A DNA stretch of 64,000 nucleotides from Candidatus Kerfeldbacteria bacterium (lineage in GTDB: Bacteria; Patescibacteriota; Patescibacteriia; UBA9570), in contig JACPGK010000032.1 in NCBI GenBank assembly GCA_016182495.1, positions 23,917 through 87,916 of the forward strand, read 5' to 3'. Of this stretch, positions 15,511-47,684 are shown piece by piece; positions within the stretch are counted from its first letter, which is position 1; the number at the start of each line of letters is the position of its first letter. The notes under the pieces are model-generated. The model searched no databases. It was not told the origin of the DNA and was given only the letters and a program-made list of their open reading frames with translations. Position numbers and translations under genes: made by a program.

Positions 15511-16871
15511 AACGAGGCAGCAACCTTATTATCGCCATTATCTTTGGTGGTTTAATTGTGATGAGTAGCGGTGCTTTAATTAGTTTATTAATTGTGCAAC
15601 AACGTACCGTGCGTAACAACGTTGCTAAAGAACAAGCTCTGCAAGTTGCCGAGGCTGGTTTAAATCGCTACCGTTGGATATTAGCGCACGACCCTGAAGA
15701 TTTTGCGGGCCAAGATAAAGATTATGTAGACGCCGATGGTGATACCATCGGACACTATACCGTAACAGTGACGCCTCCTCAAATTGGCTCGACAGTGGTG
15801 ACTTTAACGGCTACTGGTTGGACCACAGCCTATCCAAATGTTCAACGAACCCTACGCGCCCGCTATGGTCAAGGATCATACGCCGAATATGCCGTGCTGA
15901 CCGATGCGAATATTTGGTTTGGTGAGGAAGAAGAAGTGCACGGAAAATTACATTCTAATGGCGGTATTCGAATGGATGGCACGGTAGATTCACAAACTAC
16001 CTCCATTCAAGAAACCTACATTTGTGGAGCTGAACATGGCTGTGATGATGAAGAAAAACCAGGAATTTGGGGTGATGGCGGTGATACTCAATACTGGGAT
16101 TTTCCAATTGCCGACGGGGTTGATTTTGATGCTATCACTCTAGATTTAGAAACGATGCATGAGGTGGCTGAAATTGATGGTATTTTATTAGGAGATTCGG
16201 GTGAATATGGCTATCATATTGTATTTAATAATACCGGCACGTTCACGGTGTATGTGGTGACGAAATTAAAAAATTCCGCCTATGGTTCGGATGGAAAAAG
16301 TTGGCGCTATTTTTCCTATGATATTAAACAGGAATCTGTGTTAGCTGGATATGAAAACGTAGCCTTACCAGCCAGTGGCATTATTTTTGTAGAAGATGAC
16401 ACTTGGGTATCGGGTCAAGTGGCTGGTCGAGTAACTGTTGCGGCCGCCAAGTTGCCAGAACCAGGCGATGAAACCATCGATATTATGATTCCAGATAACA
16501 TTACCTATTATCCTGATCGCACCAGTGGATCGGTACTAGGGTTAGTGGCGCAGCACGACGTGACTATTTCATTGGAAGTGCCAACTGATCTGACTATTGA
16601 TGCCGCTTTGCTGGCTCAAACTGGCCAAGTGTATCGAGTGTATTTTCATCCTAATTCAAATAAAACCCATGCGGTAAAAAATTATATTGAAACCTACGGC
16701 ACAGTGATTACGCATGGTATTTGGACCTGGAGTTGGGTGAATGCCAGTGGCAATGTTACCTCTGGCTTCCAACAAACCAACTCGATTCATGATCCAGCCT
16801 TAGTATATGCTCCGCCACCTTATTTTCCCACCAAAGATGAGTACACCTTTTTATCGTGGGAGGAGCTATGA
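15507..16871 (+). CDS. PilX-N-domain minor pilin-like protein (454 aa)
   Basis: N-terminal TM segment followed by ALQVAEAGL (the PilX_N signature A.QAAEAGL); large Gly/Asp-rich C-terminal region. Confidence 0.5.
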   Translation: MKRGSNLIIAIIFGGLIVMSSGALISLLIVQQRTVRNNVAKEQALQVAEAGLNRYRWILAHDPEDFAGQDKDYVDADGDTIGHYTVTVTPPQIGSTVVTLTATGWTTAYPNVQRTLRARYGQGSYAEYAVLTDANIWFGEEEEVHGKLHSNGGIRMDGTVDSQTTSIQETYICGAEHGCDDEEKPGIWGDGGDTQYWDFPIADGVDFDAITLDLETMHEVAEIDGILLGDSGEYGYHIVFNNTGTFTVYVVTKLKNSAYGSDGKSWRYFSYDIKQESVLAGYENVALPASGIIFVEDDTWVSGQVAGRVTVAAAKLPEPGDETIDIMIPDNITYYPDRTSGSVLGLVAQHDVTISLEVPTDLTIDAALLAQTGQVYRVYFHPNSNKTHAVKNYIETYGTVITHGIWTWSWVNASGNVTSGFQQTNSIHDPALVYAPPPYFPTKDEYTFLSWEEL

Positions 16872-17770
16872 TTTTCTTTAATGGCCAAACCAGAGTAGGC
16901 ATCGATTTAAGCGACTATAAAGTGCGCTTAATTGCCTTGACTGGGACTCGTAAACCAAGTATTCGAACATTTTGCGAAATAGACATACCAACCGGCACTA
17001 TCAATGAAGGGGCTATTCAAAAAACCGAAGTAGTGGTGCAGTTACTCAAAACCCTAGCTCGTCATTGTAAAGGATTACACTGGCACGATCGTACTGTACG
17101 AGTTGGTATACCAGAACAACAAAGTTTTATTACCACCGTATCGCTCGATAGTAACCACAAAGGTGATAACATTGATCAAGTGTTAGAAGTGATACCGTTT
17201 AAAAAAGAAGAACTCTACTATGATGTGCATGAACACCGTACCAGACAAGCTATGTCCATCGCAGCTGCTCGCAAAGCGTTTGTTGATCAGTATTTACAAA
17301 TATTTTCAGCGGCCAATTTCCATGTGGTAGCATTATATAGCGAAGCCGAGGCGATGGCCACTGCCTTGCTCGATAAAACAACCTCGACCACTGCCGGGAT
17401 TATTATTATTGATCTTGGTCGGGCTCGTACTACGGTAATTTTTTGCTGTAAAGGGTTAGTTTATTTTACAACCAGTTATCCTAGCGTGCTGACTGGAGAT
17501 ACTCTGAATCAAGGCAATTTCTTGGCGGTAACGCAACAAGCCATGGCTTTTTATGGTCAGCATTATGCTCAATATGCTACACTGCAACAACTCGTATTGT
17601 GTGGCAGCGGTGCCTATCAGCCAAATCTGGCCACTACTACGCAAACGGCCTGTGCTATTACTACTGTGCTCGGTAATCCATTACAACATATTCGCAGTAA
17701 CCACTTTACTAAAAAATTAAATCGTCCGCTAACATTTACTACGGCTATTGGCTTGGTATTGTATGCTTAA
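16868..17770 (+). CDS. pilM: Type IV pilus assembly protein PilM (actin-like ATPase fold)
   Basis: VGIDLSDYKVRLI, IIIDLGRARTT and LCGSGA motifs. The start is set at the ATG that overlaps the upstream stop (ATGA), with GGAGG just upstream. Confidence 0.7.
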   Translation: MIFFNGQTRVGIDLSDYKVRLIALTGTRKPSIRTFCEIDIPTGTINEGAIQKTEVVVQLLKTLARHCKGLHWHDRTVRVGIPEQQSFITTVSLDSNHKGDNIDQVLEVIPFKKEELYYDVHEHRTRQAMSIAAARKAFVDQYLQIFSAANFHVVALYSEAEAMATALLDKTTSTTAGIIIIDLGRARTTVIFCCKGLVYFTTSYPSVLTGDTLNQGNFLAVTQQAMAFYGQHYAQYATLQQLVLCGSGAYQPNLATTTQTACAITTVLGNPLQHIRSNHFTKKLNRPLTFTTAIGLVLYA

Positions 17771-18299
17771 CATTTTACCAGCTGAACAAAAAAATATTCT
17801 CGAACAACAACAGTGGTACTGGGTATTGCGCCAAAGTGCTGTTATTATTATTGCCACTATCCTGCTGGTAAATGGATTAATTATCGGCTGTCAGCAACTG
17901 TTACAACTATGGCAACGTAGCTTAGCCCAACAAACTGATACCATTATTTTAGATGATGACACGGAAAACCGTCTTAAAGCCAAACTCGATCGACTGAACA
18001 ATTTGATTCGAGGCACAAAAAATATTCAAACTACACAGGCTGAACCAGTCAGTATTATCACTGCTTTAATGCCAGCTATCCCCGATCAAGTAGTAATAAG
18101 TAAACTGACCATAGAAATGACTGATAGTAGTGTAACCATTATTGGTACCGTGCGCGACCGAGCGATGTTATCAGTTGTCCGCCAACAATTAGAACAAGCC
18201 GCCATTGATTCTGATCGTTTAACCGAACCTAATTTTGTGGTGACTAATTTAACTTCCGGGGACACTATTCCGTTCACCTTTAGTGCTAGTATACTATGA
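17763..18299 (+). CDS. pilN: PilN-like bitopic membrane protein
   Basis: MLNILPAEQK (the PilN INLLP motif), a TM segment, and a periplasmic coiled-coil domain. Confidence 0.6.
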   Translation: MLNILPAEQKNILEQQQWYWVLRQSAVIIIATILLVNGLIIGCQQLLQLWQRSLAQQTDTIILDDDTENRLKAKLDRLNNLIRGTKNIQTTQAEPVSIITALMPAIPDQVVISKLTIEMTDSSVTIIGTVRDRAMLSVVRQQLEQAAIDSDRLTEPNFVVTNLTSGDTIPFTFSASIL

Positions 18300-18838
18300 A
18301 ATTCACCAAACCATCCTATTTAATTCGAGGGATCATTTGGTTCGGCACAGCAGTGTTACTGCTACTGATTAGTATAATTTTTATTATCCGGCCAGGACAG
18401 AGTGCTATTGGCACTACCACTGCTGCTGTTCGTACTGTCATAGCCGAACAAACTACTCCACAATCAGCTACCTCAAATTTAGTACGAGCCGTAAAACGAG
18501 AACAGGATATTGATGCCATGACCATTCAGTTATTAAATAATTACATTGATCCAGCCGCCCCACTCGATTTTATCAACCTACTTGAACAGGCGGCGACTAG
18601 TCGATCGGTTGATGTATCATTTACTATTACTGATCCTATTCCTAGCCATATTCAAGCTGGAGAACCAGCTCCGGTTCGTTTAACGCTGGCAATAACTGGT
18701 GAATTAGTAGCTGTGCTTGAATTTATCAATGATGTTGTAACCCAGCCAATGCAATTAGATATTGCAGCCATCACTATCCAACCAGCTGAACATGGTGCGA
18801 TTCAAGCAAATGTAACAGTAACATCTCACTGGCAATGA
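18296..18838 (+). CDS. pilO: PilO-like bitopic membrane protein
   Basis: N-terminal TM segment plus a roughly 150-aa extracytoplasmic domain, translationally coupled (ATGA) to pilN. Confidence 0.45.
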   Translation: MKFTKPSYLIRGIIWFGTAVLLLLISIIFIIRPGQSAIGTTTAAVRTVIAEQTTPQSATSNLVRAVKREQDIDAMTIQLLNNYIDPAAPLDFINLLEQAATSRSVDVSFTITDPIPSHIQAGEPAPVRLTLAITGELVAVLEFINDVVTQPMQLDIAAITIQPAEHGAIQANVTVTSHWQ

Positions 18839-19152
18839 ACAATTATCAATCCCTGGTTAAAAAATATCTGCCATTCAGCTGCAGTGTACTAGCACTTGGC
18901 TATGTTGGTTACATGATTTGGTTTATTGTGCAAACCAGTGTCTTGCCACTGTTTTCTGATCAAACGTTATTACTGAACAGCGAACAGTATAGTATCCCCG
19001 ATGCAGCCGTACAACGACAAATTGATTTTGCTGACCAGCGCCGTACTAACCGGCCCAATACTGCTGATGTGATTGATCGCTTTGATCATGGTAATGAAGG
19101 AGTTCTTACCAGCACGAATGATGCCTCCGTTGAACAATTACCTACTCCTTAG
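18835..19152 (+). CDS. Small membrane protein at the end of the pil operon (possible PilP analogue)
   Basis: One TM helix and an ATGA overlap with the pilO-like gene. Confidence 0.3.
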
Positions 19153-21715
19153 CTTGATGACTGTTAAAAGTTAACTTACCTTGACGATAATCAACCGTGA
19201 TAGTAGTGCCAGCCGGTAACTTACCTTCAATTAACCGCCAAGCTAATTCATCGGTGATGGTATTTTGAATAATGCGTTGTAATGGACGCGCCCCAAACAC
19301 TGGATCAAAACCAATGCTGACCAAATGGTCAGTGGCCGCTGCCGTACACTGTACCGTTACTCCTTTATCAGCCAATCGATCAATCACTCGCTGCAGCTGC
19401 AGCTGAACAATGGCCTGCATATCAGTGGCCGTGAGTTGCTGAAAAATAATACTATCATCAATCCGATTTAAAAACTCTGGACGAAATGCCTGACGCAGCA
19501 CTGTTTGTACAGCTTGACGCTGTTGATCGGGTTGGTTAGCTAACTGCATAATTTCTGGACTGGCTAAATTTGAAGTCATAATAATGATGACATTCTTAAA
19601 ATCAACTGTTCGACCTTTGGCATCGGTTAATCGTCCATCATCTAATACCTGCAGTAATATGTTCAATACTGCTGGATGGGCCTTTTCAATCTCATCAAAT
19701 AAAATTACTGTATAGGGGTGACGCCGAACAGCCTCGGTGAGTTGGCCGCCTTCTTCGTACCCAACGTAACCAGGCGGTGATCCAATTAATCGGGCTACAC
19801 TATGTTTTTCCATATACTCCGACATATCAATCCGTGTGAGCATTTTTTCACTGGTAAACAATACCTGGGCAAGGGCTTTGGCCAATTCTGTTTTACCTAC
19901 GCCAGTTGGCCCTAAAAAAATAAATGATCCAAGTGGCCGATCTTCGGCCTGAATCCCAGCCCGACTGCGCCGAACCGCTCGGGCTACTGCGGTGATGGCT
20001 TGGGTTTGTCCAATCACCCGTTCACCCAACTGCTTCTCTAAATGTGTCAACTGCTCGGTTTCAGTGGTAAGCATTTTAGTCACCGGAATACCAGTCCAAC
20101 GTGATACCACTTGGGCAATATCTTCTTCCGTCACTTCATCTTTCAAAATTTTCTGATCGCGTTGAATATCGGCTAACTGTTGCTGGGCTTGGTGGATAGT
20201 TTTTTCCAGAGCAGGAATTTTACCATAAGTAATTTCGGCCACGGCCTGTAAATCGCCTAACCGTTCTGCCTGAATGGCCTGCTCCTTCAGTTGATCAATG
20301 TGCTTACTGGCGGTTGAAATTTGATCAATGTATTTTTTTTCATTCTGCCAGTGTAATTGTATTTCTTTTAACTGTTCCCCCAGTTCAGCCAAATCGTGTT
20401 CTAGGGCAGTTAAACGCTGCTGCGATTGGGTGTCGTGTTCTTTAGTCAAAGCCGCCCGTTCAATTTCTAACTGACGAACTCGTCGTTCTAAACGATCCAG
20501 CGCTGTTGGTTTACTATCACGCTCAAGCTGTAATACCGAACAGGCTTCATCCATCAAATCAATGGCTTTATCTGGTAAAAAACGATCAGTAATATAGCGA
20601 GTCGATAACAACACCGCTGCCACTACAGCGTTATCGCGAATTTTAACCCCATGATGAACTTCATATTTTTCTTTAATACCGCGTACAATAGAAATGGCAT
20701 CGGCTGTAGTGGGCTCTTCTACCATGACTGGTTGAAATCGTCGTTCCAGCGCCGCATCTTTTTCAATATAACGACGGTATTCTTTAATAGTGCTAGCGCC
20801 AATGGCATGTAATTGGCCACGCGCTAACGTTGGCTTCAATAAATTGCCAGCATCCATAGCACCTTCAGCACTGCCAGCTCCAATAATCGTATGCAATTCA
20901 TCAATAAATAAAATGATTTGGCCATTGGACTGTTCAATTTCTTTCAACAAGGCTTTTAAACGATCTTCAAACTCGCCACGATATTTGGTACCAGCCACTA
21001 GGGCTCCTAAATCTAGGGCTAGTAACTGTTTGCGCTTTAAGCTTTCTGGCACATCACCATCAACGATCTTTTTAGCTAGACCTTCAACGATGGCGGTTTT
21101 ACCAGTACCGGGTTCGCCTACTAATACCGGATTATTTTTACTACGCCGTGATAATATTTGCATGACGCGACGAATTTCATCATCCCGACCAATCACCGGA
21201 TCAATTTTTCCAGTTCGAGCCAAAGCTGTAAAATCGTGAGTATATTTAGCCAACACCTCATACTTACTTTCCGGTTCTGCATCAGTGACGCGTTGTGATC
21301 CACGAATGGTTTTAAGCACATCTAATACTTGTTGTTGAGTGAATGGCAGCAGTTTGGTAATAGCAGTATTATCTAGTAAAGCTAATAATAGATGCTCGGT
21401 GCTAACGTAATCATCCTTCAATTGAGCCGCTGACTGTTCAGCCCGGGTTAAAACCTGTCGTAAATCGTTACCAATATACGGTTCACCGCCAGTAACCTTA
21501 GGTAGAGCGTCCAGTTCAGCCTGCAGGCTACGTTGCACGGCTGCGGGTTGATGATTTAACTTCAGTACCAACTTTGGTACCAAACCTTCTGATTGTTGTA
21601 CTAAAGCCAAAGCCAAGTGTGGTGGCTTAATTTCTTGATGTGAACTGTGCTCGGCCAGCTGTATAGTATGCTGGATAGCTTCAGCCGCTTTGGTAGTAAA
21701 ACGATTTAAATTCAT
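19142..21715 (-). CDS. clpB: Disaggregase chaperone ClpB
   Basis: Two AAA+ modules (GEPGTGKTA / GPTGVGKTE) separated by a long coiled-coil M-domain, plus a Clp_N repeat N-terminus. The preferred start is ATG 21715 (MNLNRF). Confidence 0.9.
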
Positions 21716-21726
21716 TAGCACTCTCT

Positions 21727-21756
21727 AGTATAGAGTGCTAATTATCAATTCGTCAA
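21727..21756 (-). promoter_or_regulatory. Candidate promoter for clpB (TTGACG, 18-nt spacer, TATACT on the minus strand)
   Basis: The reverse complement of 21751-21756 is TTGACG and that of 21727-21732 is TATACT. Confidence 0.35.
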
Positions 21757-21763
21757 GTGCTGG

Positions 21764-22282
21764 CTAGCGCTGATACAAAAAAATAGTAATAGCCTGTTGT
21801 CCTGGCTTATCAACTATAGTAGGCTGCCAACCGACAATTGGAAAAACATAAGAAATAACTCGACTGCCTGGTTTCAGTTCACGTTCTAATTTTAAGCGCA
21901 AGGTATGACGTAATTTTTCGGGCATACCAAACACATACACCACATCAGCGGTAGCTAAATTAATTCGGAACAGGTTGCGCCAATAAAACTGCACATTGGT
22001 TCGGCCTGAACGCCATTGTCGAAACTTACATACCAGCCATAACGGCCAGGCTAACTCCACGCCAATAGCTTGGCCAGAACAATGTTCAGCAACATACAAT
22101 ACCGTTTTACCGTTACCACAGCCTAAATCATAAAACGTTTCTGTTGGTTGTAGCTGGGCTAAGCGCAGTATCCGCGGTAAATCCTTTTGCCACATTGGTA
22201 CCCATGGAGCCAGCGACCAGCTAGGTAGAGCCATCATTGCCACCAACCCAAACAGTAGAATGAATAGTAGCCACCACATCAC
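21764..22282 (-). CDS. Class I SAM-dependent methyltransferase (small, membrane-anchored)
   Basis: Motif I YDLGCGNGK and an N-terminal hydrophobic segment. Confidence 0.55.
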   Translation of the reverse strand: MMWWLLFILLFGLVAMMALPSWSLAPWVPMWQKDLPRILRLAQLQPTETFYDLGCGNGKTVLYVAEHCSGQAIGVELAWPLWLVCKFRQWRSGRTNVQFYWRNLFRINLATADVVYVFGMPEKLRHTLRLKLERELKPGSRVISYVFPIVGWQPTIVDKPGQQAITIFLYQR

Positions 22283-25047
22283 TAAATTGGTTCAGCTTTA
22301 ATCACAGTTACTTCACCGCCGGGTTGTAGTTCCACGCTATCGCGACGTGATAATTGTTTATCCAGTAATAATTTGGCAATGCCATCTTGCACTGTATCTT
22401 GAATTAAACGACGCAACGGACGAGCTCCAAATTGACGATTATAGCCACGCTGAACCAAATCAATCACCGCAACTGGTGTCCATTGTAATGTAATACCCTT
22501 GGCTTGCAGCTGATGAGCTAACTGCTGCAACATTAATTCACCAACTTGCACCAGTTCTTCGGGCGTGAATGGAGTAAATACTGCAATATGATCGAACCGA
22601 TTTAAAAATTCTGGCCGAAAATAATGCCGTAATAAATCTCCGGACAATAATTCTTGCTCAATCGCCTGGGTGGTGGCGCCTTGATCGTAACGCTGTTGAA
22701 TAGTATCGGTACCAGCATTGGATGTGGCAATAATCATGGTATTGCTAAAATCAATCGTGCGGCCAGTACCATCAGTCAGTCGGCCATCTTCCATCACTTG
22801 TAAAAAAACATTGAGTACATCGCTATGGGCTTTCTCGAGCTCATCGAGCAACACAATGCCGAATGGCGTGCGCCGAACAGCTTCGGTGAGATGTCCTTGC
22901 TCACCGGCAGCACCGATCAGTTTAGTTAAACTGTCAGGGGTATCATATTCCGACATGTCAAATCGCAACATGGCTTGCTCGTTGCCAAAATAAACAGCCG
23001 CAATAGCTTTAGCGGTTTCGGTTTTACCTACTCCGGTGGGACCTAAAAATAGTAAGGAGGCGATTGGCCGAGTTGTATCGCGAATATCCTCTCTAGCCCG
23101 CCGTAACGCTCGCGCAATGGCTTGAATAGCTTCAGTTTGACCAATAACGCGTTCAGCTAAAATCTGTTCGAGATGCAACAACTTTTGAGCTTCAGTTTGA
23201 GAAATAGCACTTAACTGCACATTGGTTTTTTCGGACATAATCCGTTCCACCACCGCTTTAGAGACTAAAGCATGCTCACCCAATTGTTCACGGGCATAAA
23301 TAGCCGCCTCTTCCATAATGTCGAGTGCTTTAGCCGGTAAATGACGATCTTTCATAAATCGTTCAGTTAATTCGACAGCCGCTACTAAAGCATCGTGCGT
23401 AAAATATACTTTTTGCTTACTTTCTACATAGAGTGCTCGACTAGCTAACACGCGTACCGCATCGGCTGGTGCCAGTTCTGCTACTGTGACTACTTGAAAT
23501 CTGCGTAAAAATGTTTCGTTATTTTCAATATATTTCTGAAACTCTGGCGTGGTAGTAGTGCCTACTACCTTAATATACCCCTGGGAAATATAGTTCATTA
23601 AAATTTTCCCAATATCAATATTAGAACCAGTTGAGCCGGCCCCCAATAACGTATGGATATCTTCAATGCCCCAAATCACGTTGCCGGCCATAATAATATC
23701 TCGAATGATTAATTCCATCCGTTGTTCTATGCCACCAACGCCGCCGGCGCCGGCAATAATAGCACCGGGTTCCGACACTACAAAACGTTTATCCTGCAAC
23801 GATACTGGCACATCTTCGGCTGTCATTAACTGGGCAATGCCCTGCAATAGGCTGGTTTTGCCGCTGCCAGATTCACCGACAAATAACACACTGCTATGAC
23901 CTTCTTGCAACACCCGAAAGGCTTCTTGCACAGCTTGGTTCCGGCCAATCACTGGTAAAAAGTGACCGGCTCTGGCTTGCAGGGTAAAATCTTGCGATAC
24001 AGCGTCGAGTTGGTTGGTGGGTCGAGCGGTCATGGCTCGATTCATAATCGTTTTAGGTTTACTGCGACCTAAATGATACCGTCGCTGTTGTTGTTGCAGC
24101 ATATCATCCACTATATTGCTCCATTCCACCAGGCTACGCACTTTATCAAGTGTCACTTCGCGTTCGTATAAAGCGTCATTAATTAATTGATCCGCTAAAA
24201 TACAACCAACTAACGCTTCTACCGGTTTTACTTGGGGGCGATGATGGTCACGCGCTTCAGCATAGGCTAACAGTAAAGCCCGTCGCAGCTCGGCCCCTAA
24301 ATCAGGTGTTGTGAATGGATGCGCACTTTTCTCTAATCGATTAGTCAAACGCGCCAAGGTACGCTGCAACTCGCGATTATCAATTTCTAAACGATACAAC
24401 AATGCTCGAATATCACTACGCTCGTACAACGTCAGCAAGAGATGGAGGGGCTTCACTTCAGTGTGATGCCACCGTTCAGCCAACAAATACGCCTGTTCTA
24501 AAGCAGCCGTGGTGGTATCGTGCAGGTAGAGTGATGCCTCAATTTTTTTCTGATCAGGAACGTTACGCCAATATTTCCAATCCGTAGCGCTGCCGGTAAT
24601 AGTAAAATGCGCTAATTTATTTTCGGCAGTAATATAGCGATGTTGGTTGCTACGGACCAATCGGTAATATAAAAATAAATCAGCTACTACCGAGGCCCAA
24701 AAGCCTAAAATTAATGGCGAGCGCTGACTAAATAAATGCACTAACGGTTGATGCGTCACTTGCAATTCAATGATCTCTAACAGTAATGCTATTAAGCCGG
24801 CGCTGGCGGCAACGATGAACACAGTAGTCACTATCCAGTTGATGGTACGTTCGAGTTTTTTTTCAAGTACGCTGCTTACCGATAATTGCTCGCCCCAATA
24901 CACTAAATCATTTTCAATAAAACCTAACACTGATTGTTCAGCCCGACACCAGCTGCAGATGACGTGTTTACCGGCCGGAGTAATGGTATAACCAAACCCA
25001 TGACACTGTGGACAATCAATCCAAGCAGCTGATAGCGCTACAGCCAT
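22282..25047 (-). CDS. Clp/Hsp100-family double-AAA+ ATPase with an N-terminal CxxC...CxxC zinc ribbon and two predicted TM helices
   Basis: CPQC...CSWC; TM segments INWIVTTVFIVAASAGLIALLLEII and LILGFWASVVADLFLYYRL; two Clp_N-like repeats; Walker A GESGSGKTS and GPTGVGKTE; Walker B-2 IVLLDELEKAH; no long M-domain. Confidence 0.8.
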   Translation of the reverse strand: MAVALSAAWIDCPQCHGFGYTITPAGKHVICSWCRAEQSVLGFIENDLVYWGEQLSVSSVLEKKLERTINWIVTTVFIVAASAGLIALLLEIIELQVTHQPLVHLFSQRSPLILGFWASVVADLFLYYRLVRSNQHRYITAENKLAHFTITGSATDWKYWRNVPDQKKIEASLYLHDTTTAALEQAYLLAERWHHTEVKPLHLLLTLYERSDIRALLYRLEIDNRELQRTLARLTNRLEKSAHPFTTPDLGAELRRALLLAYAEARDHHRPQVKPVEALVGCILADQLINDALYEREVTLDKVRSLVEWSNIVDDMLQQQQRRYHLGRSKPKTIMNRAMTARPTNQLDAVSQDFTLQARAGHFLPVIGRNQAVQEAFRVLQEGHSSVLFVGESGSGKTSLLQGIAQLMTAEDVPVSLQDKRFVVSEPGAIIAGAGGVGGIEQRMELIIRDIIMAGNVIWGIEDIHTLLGAGSTGSNIDIGKILMNYISQGYIKVVGTTTTPEFQKYIENNETFLRRFQVVTVAELAPADAVRVLASRALYVESKQKVYFTHDALVAAVELTERFMKDRHLPAKALDIMEEAAIYAREQLGEHALVSKAVVERIMSEKTNVQLSAISQTEAQKLLHLEQILAERVIGQTEAIQAIARALRRAREDIRDTTRPIASLLFLGPTGVGKTETAKAIAAVYFGNEQAMLRFDMSEYDTPDSLTKLIGAAGEQGHLTEAVRRTPFGIVLLDELEKAHSDVLNVFLQVMEDGRLTDGTGRTIDFSNTMIIATSNAGTDTIQQRYDQGATTQAIEQELLSGDLLRHYFRPEFLNRFDHIAVFTPFTPEELVQVGELMLQQLAHQLQAKGITLQWTPVAVIDLVQRGYNRQFGARPLRRLIQDTVQDGIAKLLLDKQLSRRDSVELQPGGEVTVIKAEPI

Positions 25048-25427
25048 AGGTAAATATTAGTATCAATGATGCCAAATTGGTATACAATATTATACACTAC
25101 AAATACCGGAGCCAGTAACCACACCGCTAGTAACGCTAACAACAGTATAATATAGGCGGTGGCTTGCAAAGTGAGTAAACTAAAATGTACCAAACGTACC
25201 GGAAAACTAATCAACCGACTCCAAATATCGGTTAAGCCATACATGGGCACAAACAAGTATTGTGCCAATATTTTTAAATTGAGTGACCGAACAATATCTT
25301 GAGCCTGCCAACTTAATACTCGAATTATTTTTATGGTACCAGCGCCATACCACCACACTGGAAAATACATCACCATTAAAACGATATCAACCACCAAAAA
25401 TCGTACCACCTGTGTAAACGTTGACAT
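25038..25427 (-). CDS. Hypothetical small membrane protein
   Basis: Hydrophobic ORF overlapping the start of the Clp-like gene by 10 nt. Confidence 0.4.
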   Translation of the reverse strand: MSTFTQVVRFLVVDIVLMVMYFPVWWYGAGTIKIIRVLSWQAQDIVRSLNLKILAQYLFVPMYGLTDIWSRLISFPVRLVHFSLLTLQATAYIILLLALLAVWLLAPVFVVYNIVYQFGIIDTNIYLWL

Positions 25428-25454
25428 GGCATCAGTATACCACCGCCCAGGTGG

Positions 25455-25823
25455 TTATTCAAAATGCCAATACGGCCCTAGGGCTAACAATACTACTAGG
25501 CTAGTGATAAAAAAAATACTAAACCACCAATTCCAGCCGTAACTTAAAAAAGCCATCAAGCCAACTAGAGCAATAACATCGGCCATTGCCCAGGCAATAT
25601 ACTCCTGCTGTAAAATACGTTTAAACACAATCGCCAATAGCGCGCTCATTAAGCCCACAGCGATTAAAGCATACAGCATGGCAGTGGATTTTGTAGTGAT
25701 GTACGGCGTAGTGTACTGTAACCAATACGCTAGCGCAAAATAAACCAAGGTACTAGTCAACAGACTGGCCCATACAGTATACACGGCCGGCATATTACGA
25801 TGATTGATAATTGAATCAACCAT
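25455..25823 (-). CDS. Hypothetical small membrane protein
   Basis: 4-TM hydrophobic ORF in the same operon. Confidence 0.4.
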   Translation of the reverse strand: MVDSIINHRNMPAVYTVWASLLTSTLVYFALAYWLQYTTPYITTKSTAMLYALIAVGLMSALLAIVFKRILQQEYIAWAMADVIALVGLMAFLSYGWNWWFSIFFITSLVVLLALGPYWHFE

Positions 25824-25829
25824 GTTTCT

Positions 25830-26156
25830 TTAACACGTATAAGTTGAAGCTACTACATACAATAAACTAGCGGCGGCCAGGCTCATGCTAATTGAAATCA
25901 TAACCAACCACGATACGTGATGGCGGTGGTGTTCAAATAAATTATAGGCTTCGAGTAGTAACCCAATTAATAACACTGCTACTCCTCCGTAGCCAAACTT
26001 AGCTGCTCCTAATAATAAGGTATTAGCGCATACTTCTGTAAATACGGGAAACAACATCATACCAAACACTACGCTGACCATGACAGTTCCAATGAAAACT
26101 ACTAACACAGGTAAAGCTGGGTGTAAACCGGTTTTGGAAGGTGGGTGATGAACCAT
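25830..26156 (-). CDS. Hypothetical small membrane protein
   Basis: 3-TM hydrophobic ORF with a His-rich loop EHHRHH. Confidence 0.4.
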   Translation of the reverse strand: MVHHPPSKTGLHPALPVLVVFIGTVMVSVVFGMMLFPVFTEVCANTLLLGAAKFGYGGVAVLLIGLLLEAYNLFEHHRHHVSWLVMISISMSLAAASLLYVVASTYTC

Positions 26157-26187
26157 AGACAGTAATTAGTATAGCTAGTTCAATTGG

Positions 26188-26928
26188 TTAGGGCAAATAG
26201 AGTACGGCTGGCACTGGTAAAGAATTTTCTTGATACTGTACAGCTGGTGTACTAATCACTAACCCAGTAGATGTGCCACCATCCAGATTCAATGCCATAG
26301 TTAAATCGAGCTTCAGTTCATGAGTCACTATGTCAGCTAATTGGCTAAGTGACAGCACTCCATATTCAGCCACCATCAAATAGATGGCACCGGTTTTATC
26401 GGTGGCCAGCACAGTGCGTTGGGCGGTATCAGCTGATCCAGCTGTGTACACGTCTGCCCCGTGTAGCAGTATCGGATACGATTCCACTGCATACAAAGCA
26501 TCGCTAGCCGTTGTGGCACTCGGTTGTAAAGACCAACCTTGCCCTGTTAGGCTTTGGGCTACCCCGGTGCCAGCGCGCAGTTTTGGTCCGTACGTTTCAC
26601 CGTTAATCACCAACCGAGTAGTGGGTTGATACTGTTCATCAAAATAACTGGCATTAATCACCACCTGGGCTTGTAACTGTTGCTGCCATTCGGCTACTGT
26701 TTTTGGGTTAGACTGATCGTAGGCTAATAGTAGCGCTTGTTGGCTGGGAGCGATTTTGACAATCGAAAATAATTCTTGACCAGAAGCTTGATTAACCACC
26801 ATCTGTTTAAAGCGCACCCCTGTGACTACTGTAGTCCACTGTTGGTATTGCGTTGGTGGCGTGATTGTGGTAGTGCAACTGGTACCAAGCACAATGACTG
26901 TTAAAAGAATACAAAAAAAATAACGCAT
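26188..26928 (-). CDS. Phosphodiester glycosidase-family (NAGPA-like) lipoprotein
   Basis: Lipobox LGTSC and the C-terminal LNLDGGTSTGL motif typical of PF09992. Confidence 0.5.
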   Translation of the reverse strand: MRYFFCILLTVIVLGTSCTTTITPPTQYQQWTTVVTGVRFKQMVVNQASGQELFSIVKIAPSQQALLLAYDQSNPKTVAEWQQQLQAQVVINASYFDEQYQPTTRLVINGETYGPKLRAGTGVAQSLTGQGWSLQPSATTASDALYAVESYPILLHGADVYTAGSADTAQRTVLATDKTGAIYLMVAEYGVLSLSQLADIVTHELKLDLTMALNLDGGTSTGLVISTPAVQYQENSLPVPAVLYLP

Positions 26929-33313: not shown

Positions 33314-36300
33314 TTAGCCAGGAAATTCAAATAATTGTTTGGCTTGAATGGCTTTATTTTTTAAGCGCTCAACCAACGTAGCCATACCCGCGGGAGTATC
33401 TAAGTGAAAAGCAGCCACTAATGCTGGTCCGCGCAAGGCTTTGGCGCGGTCATCATCGCGCAGGCCATCACGTAATTTTGTGACAATAGGTTTGATAAAT
33501 ACTCCTTCGTTTGTTAAAGCTTCGCGTAAAGCTGTTACTACCGCAGGCGATTTGATCCAGTCAGGAACTTGTTTGCCGAGATTACCAAATTTAACCCATT
33601 GTTTTGCTTCAGCTTTTAATGCGTCTGGTTCAACTGCCACGGGTTCAGCAACCGGTACTACTGCTTCCTCGACTGGAGCTGGAGTTTCTGCTGCCGACGC
33701 TGCCTCGTCTGCAATTGGAACAGCTGCTTGAATTTCAGCTGGTGCTGCTGCAGCCGGCGCTTCAACTGGTTCAGCCGCAAGTGCTTCGGCCACAATTGGT
33801 TTACGTGATTTTCGTGCTGGCTTGTTTACGTCTTGAACAACTGGTTCATCAACTCTAGTTTTAGCTTTAACTCTACCTTTTTTAATTGGTATTGCTGGGG
33901 TGGCAGCTGGTTCTTCAACTGCAACAGCTGCTGGGGCAGGTGCTGGCACTGGTTCAGCTGGTGGTTGGGGTAAATCACGCAGAATTGTTTTTAAGTTTAC
34001 TTGGTTAGGTTTTTTGCCTAGTGTTGTTAACAAAGCAGCCACCGCTGGTTGATACGGTTCATCATTAGCTTGCACTAAACCAACGGCTTTGAGAGTATCG
34101 GCCACTGTTCGACCGGCGTTGTTATCGGGTGATAATGCTAATTGCAAACTATCCAAATTGGGTTTGCGGCGAGTTTCTTTAACATGCACCAAACCTACTC
34201 GTAAGGCTTCAATTAAAGCTGGATGATTCAACATTGTTCTCAAGTCTATAAATTCTGGCAAGGCATTAACTTTAGCTTGTTCTCCATTGAATAGTTCAGC
34301 TAGGTTGCCAAGACCTTTATGTTCATCAACCCCTGCTGCTACTACCACTCGCGGAGCTTCTGTAACCCAAGGCCTAGCCCCTGCTGCACTTGACCGACCG
34401 CTGCGACCGGATTTTTTGCCAAGATCAATTGGATAATCAAATACATCAGCTGCCAAAGTTTTACCGTTCTTAATATTAGTCAGCACTGTTCCTAAACGCT
34501 CGTTGCTAAATTGATGTTCAGCTGAAACTAAACCACTAGCCCGCTGCACTGCTACACCAATATTTTCTGTGGCTGCTGGCTGTACGGTAGCATGTAACTC
34601 TTGAACAGCCTGGGCAAGGGTTTGCGCCTGTGGTGCTTGTAGTAATTCATTGGGTAAATCGAGTAAGCGGGCAAAAATGAAATCGGTAAAGGTGCCGCCA
34701 AAATTGCGTACAATCACGCGCATGGCCTGGGCTAATTGATTATGTCGCTCAAGCTCTGCACCGGTTGGTTCAGCTTCACCACTATCCCGGTAAATATTAG
34801 CTTCGCCGCGATTGGCTCGTTCCACAATTTCAGTCAGTCGTTCAGTGTTCGGTGTGTCATCTTCTACTAAGCCAGTGGCTATCCCCAAATCCTGCTCAAA
34901 CCGACGATCAACCAAATTACGATTCAACCGCCGTTCGTTCAGCAAATGATCAATGATTCTAATCTGATCAACTGGGTTAGCAACCAGAGTTGTTATTCGA
35001 TGGGTGATATCTTTGCCTAATTTATCACCAAAAATTTTAGTAATTCTTTCCTGTTTACTAGCTAACCGTTCGGGTAAATCCACTTGCGCTCTAAAAAATC
35101 CATCCAGCACTTGGCGAAAGCCATTGATAGCTCCTATTAATTTATTATAATCACGTTGAGCTTGCTCACTGGCGCGAGCATCAGCTGGCGGTAATTCCAA
35201 TACCTTTCCATCAGCTTGAATTAAGGCCAAACGTGGCTCAATAGTATCAGTTAAAACCGTTCGGTAAGCTTGGGCTCCAGCTACATCGAGTGGTGGTTTT
35301 TTAGGAATTTTCGGCACCTCTACATGAGCTATAAACCAGCGTAACCGAGCTTTCAAAGCACCATTTAATACGTAGGAGCGATTATCTAATTCACGCTGAC
35401 ATAGCGCCGCAAAGCTTGCCGGATCGGTAAAGCCCCTACCACTTGGATTACGCACCGGTGCGCGTTTCAGTTCATCAGGCATAGCTGTTTGCACGGTATT
35501 CAAAGTAGCTTGTAAAGCAACCAGCCGTTGCTTGAGCCCTTGTTCAACTGTCCGAGTAGTATCATCAGATACCCGCGAAGCTGCTGAATCGGCGTTTTCA
35601 CAGTGTTTCTTCACTTCGCCAATTTGTACAAAAACTTCGTTGGCTGGCTGGAGTACTTCAGTGTTCAGCCGACTGACTAATGCAGTAGCTGCAGCCACTT
35701 GTTCAGTGGTAATTGGAGTTCGTTCAGAGGGAGAAGGTGCACCTGAAGCAACTGGGTTGGCGACGGTTGTCTGTGCTAAATCAGCAACGCACTGCTTTAC
35801 AATTGTGTCGGCACCGGCGATGATGTTTGCTTCGGATACAGTGGCTAAATCGGTAATGGTGTGACCATTAAATTCGGCGGCTGGGATAGTAGTAAGAGCA
35901 TCAGCTACTTGTGTCCGGAAATACTCTAGCACTGCTAATTGTTGTGATAGTGTTAAACCACGAGTGGTCATGGCTTCGGTAAAGCCACGTACGAACACAT
36001 TACCATATAAATCACGCAACTCACTTAATTGGCGATCCAGCTGAAGTTGTTCTTCTGGAGTATGAAAGGCTATATCCATTCTAAATAAAGGTTTTTGATT
36101 TTTGGCTAAACGTTCAGCCATGGCGGTTACTTCAGCTTCATTTACAAGATGAGTTGCGGAATCAACTAAACCGAGAGCAGCTAATAACGGTAGGTCTAAA
36201 GCTACGTTACGTAATGGCTGCCATTGTAGGCTCACTCGCAATGCCCTTACCGTATTGACTAACCGGCGCATGGCGGCGGCTTGCTTATCGGGATTAGACA

Positions 36301-39300
36301 AATGAGTACGTAAGCTTGCTAACAATGGAGTAAAAAAACTGTCATCAAAGTCAAAGCTAGTTCGTAAATCTTCGATGATAGCCGTGGTAGGATCAGTGGT
36401 TTCAGGTATCAGTTGAATGATATCTCGTTCAAAATTAACGGCTCGTGCCACCATGGCAGAAACATCGTCCGCTAGTACAGCTACGCGCTGATCGGGAGTA
36501 GCCGCGGTTAAAGCCAGTCCGCGTGGGCCAACCAAATGACGATTCCAACTGCCAATAAATGCAAGCAAAGCATTACGTTGTGATTCTAACTCTGGAGCAG
36601 CGCCCGTTAAAGCAAGCATCAATTGATCGCGAAATGATTCGCCAAACGTAGTTCCAACTACATCGCGTAGATGATTAATTTCACTGCGTAATTCGGCTGG
36701 GGTTTTTTTCAATTCAAAAATGCTAGCTGACCGTTGAATGATTCGGGTAAAAATATCTTGTAACCGCCGACGTTGGAGTCGACCAAGTCGATCGACAATA
36801 CGAACTTCAGCAAAAAAATCCATGTTGTTATCGGCTGTCACGGTTGATCCATCCGCTAACCGAAAGTTCCGTAATTGCTGCAGCAGATTATCTAACATCT
36901 CAACCACTACGTTATCAGTAAAAGGAACATTAGCGTCAGTTTCGGCAGTGCGTATGGCAGCTTGTAAGTCATTAGAAAAGCGTTCACCAAGCACCTGTTC
37001 TAATTGACCACCCAGTTGCCGAATACGTTCAGCAGGATTGGTTGGTACACCGAGATCAAAAATATTAGGCTGACGATCAATAATATCATACATTAAGCGC
37101 TGCCACACCGCTGGATTATCAGTACCATCTGCCTGGTGCACGCCAATGGCTTGAAAAAACTCACCCCGGGTAGCTTGGCTTACTGTTCGATTACCAGATA
37201 AGCGGTACGTGGTGATGGCCTGAAGGGCATGCCGTAACATTGCGGTAATTTCGCTGTTAGGAATGCTTTGCTGGCGCTGATGTTCAATGCCTTGAATGGT
37301 TGTTTCAAAACGACCCATGAAAGCCTGGCCAACAATGGCTTGTAATTGATTAAATTGGCGGCCTAAGTCTTGTAATTCGGCTTGTTGAGCAGCATTGCCC
37401 ACAGGGGCTGTAGCCACCCGTCGTTCCAGCGCCTGGCGAGCTAACTCGGCTGGGTTAGGTGCCGCTTGAGGGGGATGTGGTGGTACTGGGGCACCTGGTG
37501 CAGCGCCAGCAGCAGCAGCCGGGCCAGCACCAGCCGCGGTTGGCAGGGCAAAAATATCAGCCGCCGTTGCCATGATGCCAGCACATACTTGGCGCACCCG
37601 AGTTGGTACTAACTGACCACGGACATCGACTAAACCAACGTGTTGTAAAAATTCAACCCCTAATTGCATACCGGTTTGAGCAGCTAGTACGGTTCGCGCT
37701 TGAACAATAGCTAAATGATACATCCCTAACCGTTCAGCCGCAGTATAATTACGGCCGGTAGCTACTTCACTGGCTTGCACAGCGGCTGCCAAAGCAGTAA
37801 AAAAGTTATCACCAAAAATCTGCTTGATACGATTCACCTCTTGTTCTACCGCTTGGCCTTGCTGACGTTCTTGATTAATGGTCACTAATACATTTGGCGT
37901 ACCACGAATAATACCTTGCAATACTCGTCGTAACGGTGCCCCGGTGGCTAAGCGGCCACTGGTATCAGTCAACCCTAAATGTTCTAATAATTCATTACCA
38001 ACCCCTAAACCAGGGTGTAATCGCATCACTGCTTGTGCCTGTACCACAGCAAAATTATACATCACGACGCGGGCAGGGCGATTGAATTGGTGGCTAGTGC
38101 GAGTAGCTTCTTGCTGAATTTCAGCATCAAGCGCTGTAATAAATGGATCGCCAAAATGATGACGTAGTTCTGCTAAAGCATGATCGTGTGCTTCATAACT
38201 AGCCACGGCTGAAGCAAACTGACCTTCCAGTGCGGTAATGGCGGCATGTAATCCAGTCACCTGTGTTTGCATTGCCAAATACACTGGGGGGTTTAAAAAT
38301 TGAGGAAGTTGCGTTACTGTGGTTACATCCAGGTGCAGATCGTTTATTGGATTAAGCGCAGTGGCTCGTAAATTAGCCAATAACGTTTGCCATTCAACCA
38401 AGGTACCATTACCACTGGCCAAGCGGGCTTGGATATCGGTAGCCAATGGCTGCCAGGCAGTGGTTACTGCTGTAGCCAGACGGGTAGTGCGATCACAAAT
38501 GGTTTGATCTAACAAGCGGCCATGAGTTTCGGTTTGTTGATTAATAGCCGTCAAACGATCATTCAAGGTGGCTCCATTCTGTAAACGCAGTGACCCAACT
38601 CCCGAAAAAGTTGCCATACAATGTATGCGATACAGTTCCCGTAACTTATTTAATCGATCTTTAGCATCATGTTCTTTGGTGCGTACCTCGGCAGTAAGTT
38701 CGTTACGTTGCCAATGTTGTTGCAGTTCTGTCATTAACCGTTGCACGGCAACTAAATCTGGCTGGGCTTGAGTTTCAACTTGGCTATCAGTCTGTTCAGC
38801 TTGAGCTATTGCTTCTGGATGATCCAAATTAACTGCCCTCACCTGTTCATCGGTACTTATGATATGTTCCGAATGATTAGCCGAACGGTTATTATCAGCA
38901 ATAGCTGATGCTCCCAACATTTGTTCACCCAAAATACCGCCAGCTAATATTACACTGGCGCCTAACTTATCAACTAAGCCTGCTTCCCAGCGATCAGCCG
39001 CACTGGCTAAGGCCAGTTCAGTCAATACCCGACTAGTGCCCACTGGTTGATAAATATCTTGCAATAATAGTAAACGCACATCAGGATTAGTAGACACTAT
39101 GTCACCAACAATGGTATCGCCGGTTGGGGCTGGTGCCGCCGCGACAGCAGCGGCTTCGCGTATCGCTCGAGCTTGTTCTACTAATTGCATCCACCGTTGA
39201 TTAACTCCAACATAGTCTGGGGCGCCGGAACCATCAACAAAGCGCAATTCGTGACTACGAATAAAGGCAGTATCTTTTCCTTGAAAAGCTTCATGTAAAG

Positions 39301-45776: not shown

Positions 45777-46715
45777 GTGATTATTGATGAAATCCAGCAT
45801 CTGCCAACATTATTTCCATTGTTACGAGCGTTGATTGATCAGCAGCGCCAACCAGGGCAATTTCTAATTTTAGGCTCTGCTTCTCCACACCTTTTACGAC
45901 AGGCTTCTGAATCATTGGCTGGACGAATCATTTATCATGAATTAACACCGTTGACATTAGCTGAATGCACGCCTCACCCATATACCTGGAAACAATTATG
46001 GTTGCGCGGAGGATATCCTGAAAGCATGCTAGCAAACACCGATACTATTAGTTACCAATGGCGGCAATCATTTATTCGTAACTATATTGAACGTGATATC
46101 CCACAATTACAGGCAATCCGAACATCAGGCGCGCAGTTACAACGACTATTATTAATGTTAGCCCATAGTCATGGTCAGCTATGGAATCGATCAGCCATTG
46201 CTAAGGCCCTCGGTATATCAATGCGTACCATTCAACAGTTTGTTGATTTATTCATTGATACATTTCTAGTACGACAACTCCAGCCTTATCATGTTAACCT
46301 CAAAAAAAGATTAATTAAAACTCCAAAACTCTATTTCCGAGATAGCGGTATTATCCATACACTGCTGAATATTCAAACTCTAGATCAACTGCATAATCAT
46401 CCGGCCGTTGGTGCTTTATGGGAAGGATTTGCCATCGAGCAACTACTGAATATATTACCGTCCACTTGGCAATATTATTTTTATCGTACACACACTGGCG
46501 TAGAAGTTGACTTGCTGCTAATTTCACCAACTCATCAGCACATTCTTGTAGAAATAAAATATACTCTATCCCCCACTCTATCACGAGGTTTTTGGGAAGC
46601 CTACCAAGATTTATATTGTCACAAAGCCTATATTCTTTATCCAGGGACAGAACACTATAACCTAGCTAAACATGTAACAGTGTTGCCTATAGCTGCGATA
46701 TCGACGGTAGCATAA
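45777..46715 (+). pseudogene. N-terminally truncated DUF4143-type AAA ATPase (begins at the Walker B, lacks the Walker A)
   Basis: Starts IIDEIQHLPTLFPLL (Walker B region); only about 160 nt of non-coding sequence lie upstream, and a short out-of-frame ORF MIKRQHTAPACDY precedes it. Confidence 0.45.
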
Positions 46716-47286: not shown

Positions 47287-47684
47287 GGGGATGTGTATAT
47301 CATTGATAGGTTCGTTCTTTATAGTATCGGCTAGCAATGCCCAGCATCATTTCAAAGGCTGAAACTTCTAAGTGCAAACTTAGTTCAAAAAGTAAAAGCC
47401 AAGGTGGCCGCGTTATCTAACGCGTTCCGTCCAGCTTTTGCTCCTGTTGTAGCTTAATTCTACAACCATCCAGCAGGCTGATCTCTGATAGGCCTGTGCG
47501 GGTGTCATATTCATCGGGGTCGGTAGCTGTGTAGCTGGTGCTTAGCTGCCTAAACTATGGCCAGATCGGTTAACACTGTTTGGTGTCATTTTCAGGTGTT
47601 AGCTTAAATTCAAACGGCACTACGCTAGTAGATGATATTATCAAGCCAACCTAGACGCGGGCGTAATTCCCGCCATCTCCACCA
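47287..47684 (+). ncRNA. ssrA: tmRNA (SsrA), standard one-piece; predicted tag ANLVQKVKAKVAALSNAFRPAFAPVVA
   Basis: 3' end GACGCGGGCGTAATTCCCGCCATCTCCACCA (T arm plus acceptor plus CCA); the 5' GGGGATG pairs with CATCTCC; the resume context TAAGTGCAAAC resembles E. coli TAGTCGCAAAC; an in-frame TAA lies at 47455; the gene is adjacent to smpB. Confidence 0.7.

Follow-up and report, generated by a model that had tools for sequence, protein, structure and literature searches.

Introduction

The closest described relatives of the system analysed here are the Clp/Hsp100 ATPases. ClpB and Hsp104 contain a Clp N-domain, two AAA modules (D1 and D2) and a ClpB_D2-small domain, have no ClpP-docking loop, and carry an M-domain, a canonical Walker B motif in D1 and tyrosines in the pore loops. 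ClpA, ClpC and ClpE have the same N-D1-D2 order with the M-domain missing or short, together with an IGF/IGL-type ClpP loop, and ClpE also starts with a zinc ribbon. Here we describe a locus in a 64,000-nt stretch of DNA (the window) from the Candidatus Kerfeldbacteria metagenome-assembled genome (MAG) GCA_016182495.1, contig JACPGK010000032.1, positions 23,917–87,916 of the forward strand. Six consecutive minus-strand genes encode three small membrane proteins (s108, s122 and s129), a membrane-anchored Clp-like protein that we call mClp, a methyltransferase, and ClpB. mClp shares with ClpB the four domains and the absence of a ClpP loop, and is often encoded beside clpB. However, it differs in having a transmembrane (TM) hairpin and usually a zinc ribbon, in lacking an M-domain, in its non-canonical D1 Walker B motif and, in the clade of the window, in the absence of pore tyrosines. 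It matches ClpA, ClpC and ClpE in length and fold, but lacks a ClpP loop and combines a membrane anchor with a degenerate D1 and what looks like an obligate small membrane partner.

A second comparison is with AAA proteins that act at membranes. FtsH and Msp1/ATAD1 resemble mClp in having an N-terminal TM anchor, with the ring entry face at the cytoplasmic side of the membrane, a topology for pulling membrane proteins. They are single-ring proteins of the classic AAA clade with aromatic pore loops, and FtsH has a protease domain, whereas mClp, an Hsp100, has two rings, carries no protease and, in the clade of the window, lacks any pore-loop aromatic residue. Torsins and their partners LAP1 and LULL1 (PMC5425593) offer a different parallel: like mClp, Torsins are Clp/Hsp100-related AAA+ proteins that lack aromatic pore loops, are found at a membrane and have a membrane-spanning partner. 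They differ in being eukaryotic, lumenal and single-ring, and their partners have an AAA-like fold that provides an arginine finger, whereas s129 is a helical hairpin of 129 residues. Our literature search found no relevant description of a membrane-anchored Hsp100 in the candidate phyla radiation (CPR)/Patescibacteria, and the s129-mClp pair appears to be widespread in Patescibacteria and previously undescribed.

Results

s129 and mClp as a two-gene unit

A first-pass annotation, made from the sequence of the window, had singled out the six genes as a co-directional cluster and suggested that the three small membrane proteins could be substrates, adaptors or anchors of the Clp-like protein. 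The coordinates (Table 1) are confirmed, and so are the two junctions that it had pointed out. The s129 stop codon (TAG, 25040–25038) falls 10 nt inside the mClp open reading frame (ORF), which starts with an ATG at 25047, and base 22282 is common to the mClp stop and the GTG of the methyltransferase, for which the NCBI call starts at the ATG at 22279 (171 aa). Such packing is the norm in this genome. The coding fraction of the window is 96%, same-strand neighbours are separated by a median of 6 nt, and the gap is 10 nt or less in 26 of 40 such pairs; the six genes close a minus-strand run of 12, whose other members include ileS, recO, a DUF11 surface protein, tgt, a NAGPA-like protein and a 2846-aa orphan. 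The co-directionality and tiny gaps of the six genes are therefore no more than would be expected by chance here. Because dense packing is typical, co-directionality and overlaps say little, and comparative data are needed.

Gene order was compared in two surveys. In the first, based on mClp, one genome per species was scanned with the motif MN[RK][AS]MTARP, giving 24 loci that were then analysed by tblastn and ORF clustering. In this set, s129 lies directly 5′ of mClp in all 23 loci that have upstream DNA. In the second, based on s129, a motif taken from a 16-sequence alignment was used to scan metagenomes; 433 stretches were confirmed and 80 loci kept, and dereplication at 80% s129 identity gave 73 lineages. 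Here an mClp-type ORF begins no more than 400 nt downstream in 64 of the 65 dereplicated lineages with room for one, and the lone exception (L069) is an ORF-calling artefact: tblastn finds the mClp gene adjacent. The distance from the s129 stop to the mClp start is mostly between −25 and +26 nt, with a gap of 943 nt in L044. Three distant s129 members were looked up singly, and each is followed by a Clp-like gene of 851–919 aa, so that even pairs as low as 28–35% in identity lie side by side. The adjacency, usually an overlap, persists at 28–40% identity, while every other neighbour changes. These counts (23/23 and 64/65) fit s129 being an obligate partner of mClp, as an anchor, adaptor or regulator, and the comparison shows that s129 and mClp are a conserved two-gene unit.

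The unit usually seems to have its own promoter. In the window, a promoter-like site with a TG extension (Table 1) lies in the 27-nt gap between s122 and s129, and because its −10 box ends 6 nt before the ATG, the s129 mRNA would be leaderless or nearly so. An extended −10 element is present in the last 33 nt before s129 in 32 of the 73 lineages, compared with 1.3% of random windows and 4% of the corresponding positions before other ORFs.

An apparent Rosetta-stone fusion of s129 and mClp (P0242, 414 aa) was rejected as an artefact of a frameshift-riddled contig (L111; ena ERZ1286166 contig_6296). Frameshifts there break uvrC into three fragments and the Clp gene into about seven.

Domain structure of mClp

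Pfam identifies AAA_2 (E = 5.7e-53), ClpB_D2-small (1.9e-20), AAA_lid_9 (3.4e-10) and Clp_N (1.4e-4) in mClp, which thus has the N-domain, D1, D2 and D2-small expected of a class I Clp/Hsp100 protein. It nevertheless scores below every NCBIfam equivalog cut-off (TIGR03346, ClpB, 540 versus 1232 bits; TIGR02639, ClpA, 476 versus 993). The structure predicted by AlphaFold2 has a pLDDT of 86.4 and a pTM of 0.76, and the best Foldseek matches to it in the PDB are ClpC and ClpB protomers, with TM-scores of about 0.8 over about 590 residues and E-values of 1e-46 to 1e-56.

At the N-terminus is a zinc ribbon of the form CxxCxGxG...CxxC (CPQCHGFG...CSWC in the window), in which C12, C15, G17, C31 and C34 are invariant or nearly so in alignments A1 and A2, and AlphaFold2 places β strands at residues 7–50. 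This is followed by the TM hairpin, which includes the motif FWxSxxxDLxLYYR. Hydropathy gives hydrophobic segments at approximately residues 68–97 and 111–133, AlphaFold2 gives helices at 57–97 and 111–133, and there are basic residues at both cytoplasmic sides of the helices. The Clp_N-like domain is connected to D1 by a linker, KPKxxMNRAMTARPT (residues 330–344), which is specific to the family, invariant or nearly so in A1, and aligned opposite a gap in ClpB; within it, residues 335–339 have low pLDDT.

D1 in the window retains the Walker A motif (GESGSGKT) and the RR arginine finger, but Walker B reads IED where ClpB has IDE, and the pore loop is GGVGGIE compared to KYRGEFE. D2 has intact Walker A, Walker B, sensor 1 and sensor 2 motifs, with GAAGEQGH in place of the GYVGY pore loop of ClpB, which is replaced or deleted. 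The window protein therefore has neither of the aromatic pore loops (KYR in D1, GYVG in D2). It also has no M-domain: the distance from LPxKA to the D2 Walker A motif is 99 aa, compared to 222 in ClpB, seen as a gap of about 120 aa in A1, and with the M-domain missing mClp has no docking site for Hsp70. Pfam and NCBIfam scans found no peptidase domain of the FtsH type (M41) in mClp.

These features were counted in 61 full-length members of the family. All 61 have at least one hydrophobic segment within the first 230 residues, and 36 have the zinc ribbon. The D2 Walker A, Walker B (DE), sensor 1 (TSN) and sensor 2 (GARP) motifs are each present in 61/61. By comparison, the canonical DE of Walker B in D1 is found in 0/61, being replaced by ED, DD, DN, EN, PN and others; GK[TS] is present in D1 in 38, the RR finger in 23, and a D1 pore-loop aromatic in one. 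A D2 G[YFW]xG loop occurs in eight. We note that GAPPGY[KR]G is kept as the D2 pore loop in one sublineage (L014, L015, L016, L017, L019, L023, L082 and L089) and is lost in the clade of the window; the family may include both threading and non-threading members.

There is no insertion corresponding to a ClpP-docking loop: the segment from TSN to FRPEF is 31–32 aa long, as in ClpB, in the 41 of 61 members where it can be delimited. Three members have an MGL triplet in this segment, at the same length. The exact proteins of the window are in the NCBI database, from a Kerfeldbacteria MAG, as 'ATP-dependent Clp protease ATP-binding subunit', 'hypothetical protein HYV33_05480' and 'class I SAM-dependent methyltransferase'. 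The first of these names is probably misleading for mClp, because there is no ClpP loop.

Approximately 50 full-length orthologues of mClp were found, with 37–66% identity, and all those with a named organism are from Patescibacteria or an unclassified bacterium. Below them the scores fall sharply to ordinary ClpB proteins, which match only in D2; the D2 domains of mClp and ClpB are 42–49% identical. Nine of the related loci (L005, L006, L009, L010, L012, L013, L015, L020 and L021) are titled 'uncultured Gammaproteobacteria bacterium', with mClp 41–54% identical to that of Kerfeldbacteria. Several of the MAGs with such titles have the same DUF11-tgt synteny as Kerfeldbacteria, and the labels look like placeholders or errors.

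s129

A profile search found 545 s129 representatives at 50% clustering, 291 of them below 1e-10, and nearly all of the best 150 of the 545 are 105–170 aa long. The family is characterised by the motifs YFPxWWYxxG and PMYGxxDxxSRxISFxVR (alignments A3 and A4). The invariant residues (W25, W26, Y27, G30, P61, M62, G64, D67, R71, S74, F75 and R78) are concentrated in two places, where the first hydrophobic segment ends and in the loop that joins it to the second. AlphaFold2 predicts a hairpin (pLDDT 86.7) with long helices at residues 3–48 and 68–117. The loop between them has six lysine or arginine residues and two aspartates. Positively charged loops are cytoplasmic according to the positive-inside rule, and so this loop is presumably cytoplasmic, on the same side of the membrane as the zinc ribbon, N-domain and rings of mClp. 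A Foldseek search of the PDB with the s129 model gave nothing better than E = 5.

s108 and s122

The three small ORFs were originally described as membrane proteins, and each indeed has 2–4 hydrophobic segments; none of them has a Pfam or NCBIfam match, even at E ≤ 10. Paralogy of s108, s122 and s129 was considered and rejected, the phmmer scores being 5 bits or less.

s108 has approximately three hydrophobic segments and only 11 close homologues. s122, which starts 6 nt after s108, has three to four, and is the least conserved of the three small proteins. It was found by tblastn at 29–49% identity in L001, L002, L010–L013, L024, L037, L038, L040 and L041, is missing in L003 and L005, and is displaced in L004. 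Both proteins occur only in the close relatives of the window, and a promoter-like site stands between s122 and s129; a further such site lies upstream of s108 (Table 1). The idea of small proteins as partners of mClp therefore survives for s129 and not for the other two, which are orphan membrane proteins specific to a subclade and have no demonstrated tie to mClp.

The methyltransferase

The first-pass annotation had placed a small membrane-anchored methyltransferase between the two Hsp100 genes, and this is borne out. Residues 25–170 match PDB entries 5fa8 (E = 6.9e-19) and 5jwj (E = 1.2e-17), the S-adenosylmethionine (SAM) motif DLGCGNG aligns with DLGCGDG of the crenarchaeal lysine methyltransferase, and Pfam gives a match to DOT1 (E = 4.6e-6). 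Hydropathy indicates an added anchor, an N-terminal hydrophobic helix at approximately residues 1–26. The protein is thus, as judged from its sequence, a membrane-anchored class I SAM lysine methyltransferase similar to aKMT4 and DOT1. It resembles aKMT4 over its full length, in its SAM motif and in its small size, but it is bacterial, has the extra N-terminal TM anchor, and scores below the NCBIfam equivalog cut-off for aKMT4 (NF041081, 59.7 bits against a cut-off of 200).

The gene is directly downstream of mClp only in a subclade (L001, L002, L003, L005, L006, L010, L011, L033 and L036). In L008 the two genes are 4 kb apart, and no methyltransferase gene was detected in the remaining loci. 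aKMT4 is reported to methylate the AAA+ protein MCM (PMC4639711), which makes mClp a candidate substrate for methylation, as a lead only.

clpB and its control region

The clpB gene encodes a canonical ClpB disaggregase. It scores 1263.4 bits with TIGR03346, above the cut-off of 1232.1, and retains KYRGEFE, GYVGY and the M-domain insertion of approximately 120 aa (A1). Its true start is most likely the ATG at 21715 (MNLNRF...) rather than the GTG at 21721.

The 42-nt gap between the methyltransferase and clpB is filled by a promoter-like site and a perfect CIRCE (controlling inverted repeat of chaperone expression) operator, the binding site of HrcA, which reads TTAGCACTC-TATACTAGA-GAGTGCTAA with a spacer of 9 nt. 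The operator is unique in the 64 kb even when up to three mismatches are allowed, and none was found in 100 shuffles. CIRCE encloses the −10 box (TATACT) of clpB in its spacer and ends on the A of the clpB start codon. The layout, with TATACT in the spacer, recurs in L002 and L005. A transcript starting here would have almost no leader and would lack part of the inverted repeat, which would leave CIRCE a role only as a DNA operator. A perfect inverted repeat over a sigma-70-type promoter directly before clpB is as in many bacterial heat-shock operons. The classical positions of CIRCE are before groESL and dnaK; here it is before clpB, with the −10 box in the spacer and almost no leader. No hrcA gene was found among the scanned window ORFs of 150 aa or more, a set that took in all but about a dozen of them.

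With up to two mismatches, CIRCE is found beside clpB in L002, L005, L028, L047, L048, L051, L054, L060, L067, L074, L078, L080, L081, L086, L094, L095, L105 and L106. In three short contigs (L057, L075 and L110) it is shortly upstream of s129, with no clpB ORF in view. We considered whether CIRCE might be a common operator for divergent clpB and s129 genes, and rejected this: CIRCE hugs the clpB promoter, and the s129 −10 box is 60–100 nt or more away. In L105 there is a hairpin followed by a T-run between clpB and s129.

The position of clpB is variable. Among the mClp-based loci, only three have it downstream: L005, where it is adjacent, and L001 and L002, where one and two genes, respectively, intervene. 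It is absent from this place in L003, L010 and L011, and in some other loci is divergent upstream. For counting neighbourhoods we required 3 kb or more of visible sequence upstream and 5.5 kb or more downstream, which left 36 dereplicated lineages. A canonical clpB is near s129-mClp in 13 of these: divergent upstream in eight, co-directional downstream, as in the window, in four, and co-directional upstream in one. We estimate the chance of finding a given gene within about 6 kb as roughly 1–2%, assuming a genome of about 1 Mb, although the lineages are not independent. The genomic comparison therefore indicates that the two Hsp100 genes are neighbours more often than expected by chance, yet are separate transcription units. 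The proximity of the two genes noticed in the window is in this sense real, though it does not extend to a conserved operon.

Discussion

The comparison shows the locus to be a composite of four units: the s129-mClp core, the methyltransferase of the subclade, s108 with s122, and a separate clpB heat-shock unit. We propose the following mechanism for the core, and regard the reading as a whole as probable, if with modest confidence. s129 and mClp would form a single membrane-embedded complex, in which an mClp hexamer hangs at the cytoplasmic face of the membrane from its N-terminal TM hairpins, with the N-domain face, through which substrates enter, toward the membrane. s129 would add two to three TM helices and a positively charged cytoplasmic loop that touches mClp, as an anchor, adaptor or regulator. 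D2 would be the motor and D1 a structural or regulatory nucleotide site. The complex would not be proteolytic and would need neither Hsp70 nor ClpP; it would act at the membrane by remodelling or extracting proteins, in membrane-protein quality control or assembly, with a weak or unconventional grip on its substrates. In the subclade, the translationally coupled downstream methyltransferase may methylate mClp or proteins close by at the membrane. The recurrence of clpB may reflect ancestry by duplication, or a functional partnership in which ClpB and mClp are the cytosolic and membrane arms of one disaggregation system.

The N-terminal anchor would hold the ring with its entry face at the membrane, an orientation shared with FtsH and Msp1, and this points to membrane proteins as its targets. 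That both pore-loop tyrosines are lost in the clade of the window argues against classical processive threading, and leaves room for a partner-dependent mode similar to that of Torsins (PMC5425593). In its most specific form, which we offer only tentatively, the proposal is that s129-mClp is an unrecognised two-subunit machine of Patescibacteria, with D1 a pseudo-ATPase, which is non-threading and partner-dependent in the manner of a Torsin, and which remodels membrane proteins or envelope assemblies, possibly with ClpB and tuned by the methyltransferase in the subclade.

Several points weigh against this reading. Extraction or remodelling is suggested by topology and family rather than by motifs, because there is no aromatic pore loop in either ring, and since 8 of 61 members keep the D2 GYxG loop, the mechanism may differ within the family. 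Instead of forming a structural part of the complex, s129 could be a substrate or a regulator, and no natural fusion of s129 and mClp was found. The association with clpB, which was counted with no correction for phylogeny, could be inherited ancestral synteny with a few inversions. Each of the promoters is a consensus match in AT-rich DNA, and there is no terminator between the methyltransferase and clpB, so that read-through from the upstream unit is possible. Finally, all the sequences, including those of the 110 related loci compared, come from metagenome assemblies.

One alternative is that suggested by the first-pass annotation: a single six-gene operon, in which mClp has the small proteins as its substrates, adaptors or anchors and shares a pathway with the methyltransferase and ClpB. 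The genes all point the same way, no gap exceeds 42 nt, and no terminator-like site was found on the minus strand between them. The order s108-s122-s129-mClp-methyltransferase is complete in L001, L002, L010 and L011, and is kept except for s122 in L003, L005, L033 and L036, with clpB directly after the methyltransferase in L005. However, dense packing is the norm throughout the genome, promoter-like sites precede s129 and clpB, the latter with CIRCE, most s129-mClp lineages have no s108, s122 or methyltransferase, and the position of clpB varies. We therefore regard a single operon as unlikely. Conservation of gene order, which had been proposed as a check, holds universally for s129-mClp, but extends to s108, s122 and the methyltransferase only within the subclade, and not to the position of clpB. 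Lack of synteny, and transcript boundaries between the genes, had been named as findings that would count against the cluster; synteny does decay in the relatives, and the boundaries that we predict fall between genes, so that the original proposal is contradicted in part.

Similarly unlikely, in our view, is that mClp is a catalytically limited scaffold that does not itself remodel substrates but recruits canonical ClpB or the Hsp70 system to the membrane, through mixed hexamers or stacked rings, with s129 as the membrane receptor. The recurrence of clpB nearby in three arrangements, the degenerate D1, the non-canonical pore loops of the window clade, and the similarity of the D2 domains of mClp and ClpB would all be consistent with this. 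Nevertheless, the D2 catalytic motifs are invariant in all 61 members, as expected of a working ATPase, 23 of the 36 lineages in view have no clpB nearby, and mClp has no M-domain and shows no sign of mixed assembly.

We consider it more doubtful still that s129-mClp is the motor of a protein export system or surface structure serving an episymbiotic lifestyle, comparable to HSP101 on PTEX or to the accessory ATPases of secretion systems. The complex would be at the membrane, a hexamer would surround a single axis with 12 TM helices and, in addition, those of s129, and in the subclade pilM and three genes, which are pilN/pilO-like by position and size only, adjoin the cluster convergently. Against this, the TM hairpin would be at the N-terminal entry face, as in FtsH and Msp1, unlike the exit face used in PTEX; the pore-loop tyrosine is lacking; and no secretion or pilus gene is linked across lineages, the distant neighbours being glyS, an M16 peptidase, a permease and metG. 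It is very improbable that the linkage has no function, with mClp a stand-alone diverged paralogue of ClpC or ClpB and the small ORFs merely the gene order of a compact genome: the gene order of the subclade is broadly kept, including DUF11-tgt-NAGPA, but s129 remains beside mClp at 28–40% identity, usually overlapping it, while the other neighbours change.

The composite arrangement, with s129-mClp as its core, has some wider consequences. A large ATPase and a small partner that are kept in hundreds of lineages with minimal genomes are probably important for membrane or envelope biology. mClp is a natural test of which features an Hsp100 motor needs, being membrane-anchored, with a degenerate D1 and, in some clades, neither of the pore tyrosines, and it may be a bacterial counterpart of Torsins and other AAA+ proteins that depend on a partner. 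For annotation, s129 is a family that has no Pfam model, and dense co-directional packing in these genomes is no proof of an operon.

Other features of the window

The coordinates of the genes, domains and control sites are collected in Table 1.

Table 1. Coordinates in the window of the six genes, the domains of mClp and the putative control sites
Feature	Position	Strand	Basis
clpB ORF, as first called	19142–21721	−	ORF list
clpB from ATG 21715 (most likely start), 857 aa, canonical ClpB disaggregase	19142–21715	−	TIGR03346, A1
CIRCE operator (HrcA site), perfect, TTAGCACTC-N9-GAGTGCTAA	21715–21741		motif scan
Promoter-like site before clpB, TTGACG-18-TATACT	21727–21756	−	consensus scan
Methyltransferase ORF, 172 aa	21764–22282	−	ORF list
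mClp ORF, 921 aa	22282–25047	−	ORF list
mClp D2 AAA and D2-small, residues ~620–921	22285–23190	−	Pfam, A1, family counts
mClp D1 AAA module, residues ~345–590	23278–24015	−	alignment A1, family counts
mClp Clp_N-like domain, residues ~157–330	24058–24579	−	Pfam Clp_N, E = 1.4e-4
mClp TM hairpin, residues 68–133	24649–24846	−	hydropathy, AlphaFold2
mClp zinc ribbon, residues 12–34	24946–25014	−	alignments A1, A2
s129 ORF, 129 aa	25038–25427	−	ORF list
Promoter-like site before s129, TTGAAT-17-TGgTATACT	25434–25462	−	consensus scan
s122 ORF, 122 aa	25455–25823	−	ORF list
s108 ORF, 108 aa	25830–26156	−	ORF list
Promoter-like site 11 nt upstream of s108, TTGCCC-17-TATACT	26168–26196	−	consensus match in window

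The GC content is 0.43–0.46 across the region, and its composition gives no signal of foreign origin. Rfam gave no match in the cluster region. At several genes a TATACT or TATAAT box lies 6–11 nt ahead of the start codon, with no visible Shine-Dalgarno sequence (25434–25427, 26168–26156 and 26937–26928), which suggests that leaderless or short-leader mRNAs are widespread in this organism.

On the other side of clpB, pilM (Pfam PilM_2) and three small single-TM ORFs with no Pfam match (16856–19152, plus strand) converge on it, and the final ORF of this group shares its last 11 nt with the 3′ end of clpB. This convergent trio is also present after the cluster in L002, L005, L010 and L011.

In nine of the more distant loci (L004, L007, L009, L014, L016, L017, L019, L021 and L023) the genes after mClp were assigned by eye as glyS, an M16 peptidase, an AI-2E-type permease and metG. 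A mur/mraY cell-wall cluster had been guessed at this position in distant loci from gene size and number of TM segments, and was rejected when the sequences, read by eye, were taken to be housekeeping genes. The presence of an M16 peptidase near a Clp-like ATPase in these distant relatives is potentially worth attention.

Further along the window, the 2846-aa ORF (33314–41854, minus strand) lies between ileS and a short plus-strand ORF, and has no Pfam match at E ≤ 0.001. A tmRNA gene at 47287–47684 (plus strand) was identified with Rfam (RF00023, 76 bits) and missed by ARAGORN. Just ahead of it, at 45777–46715 on the plus strand, is a gene for an ATPase with AAA_14 and DUF4143 domains, of a type that is often tied to mobile or defence elements.

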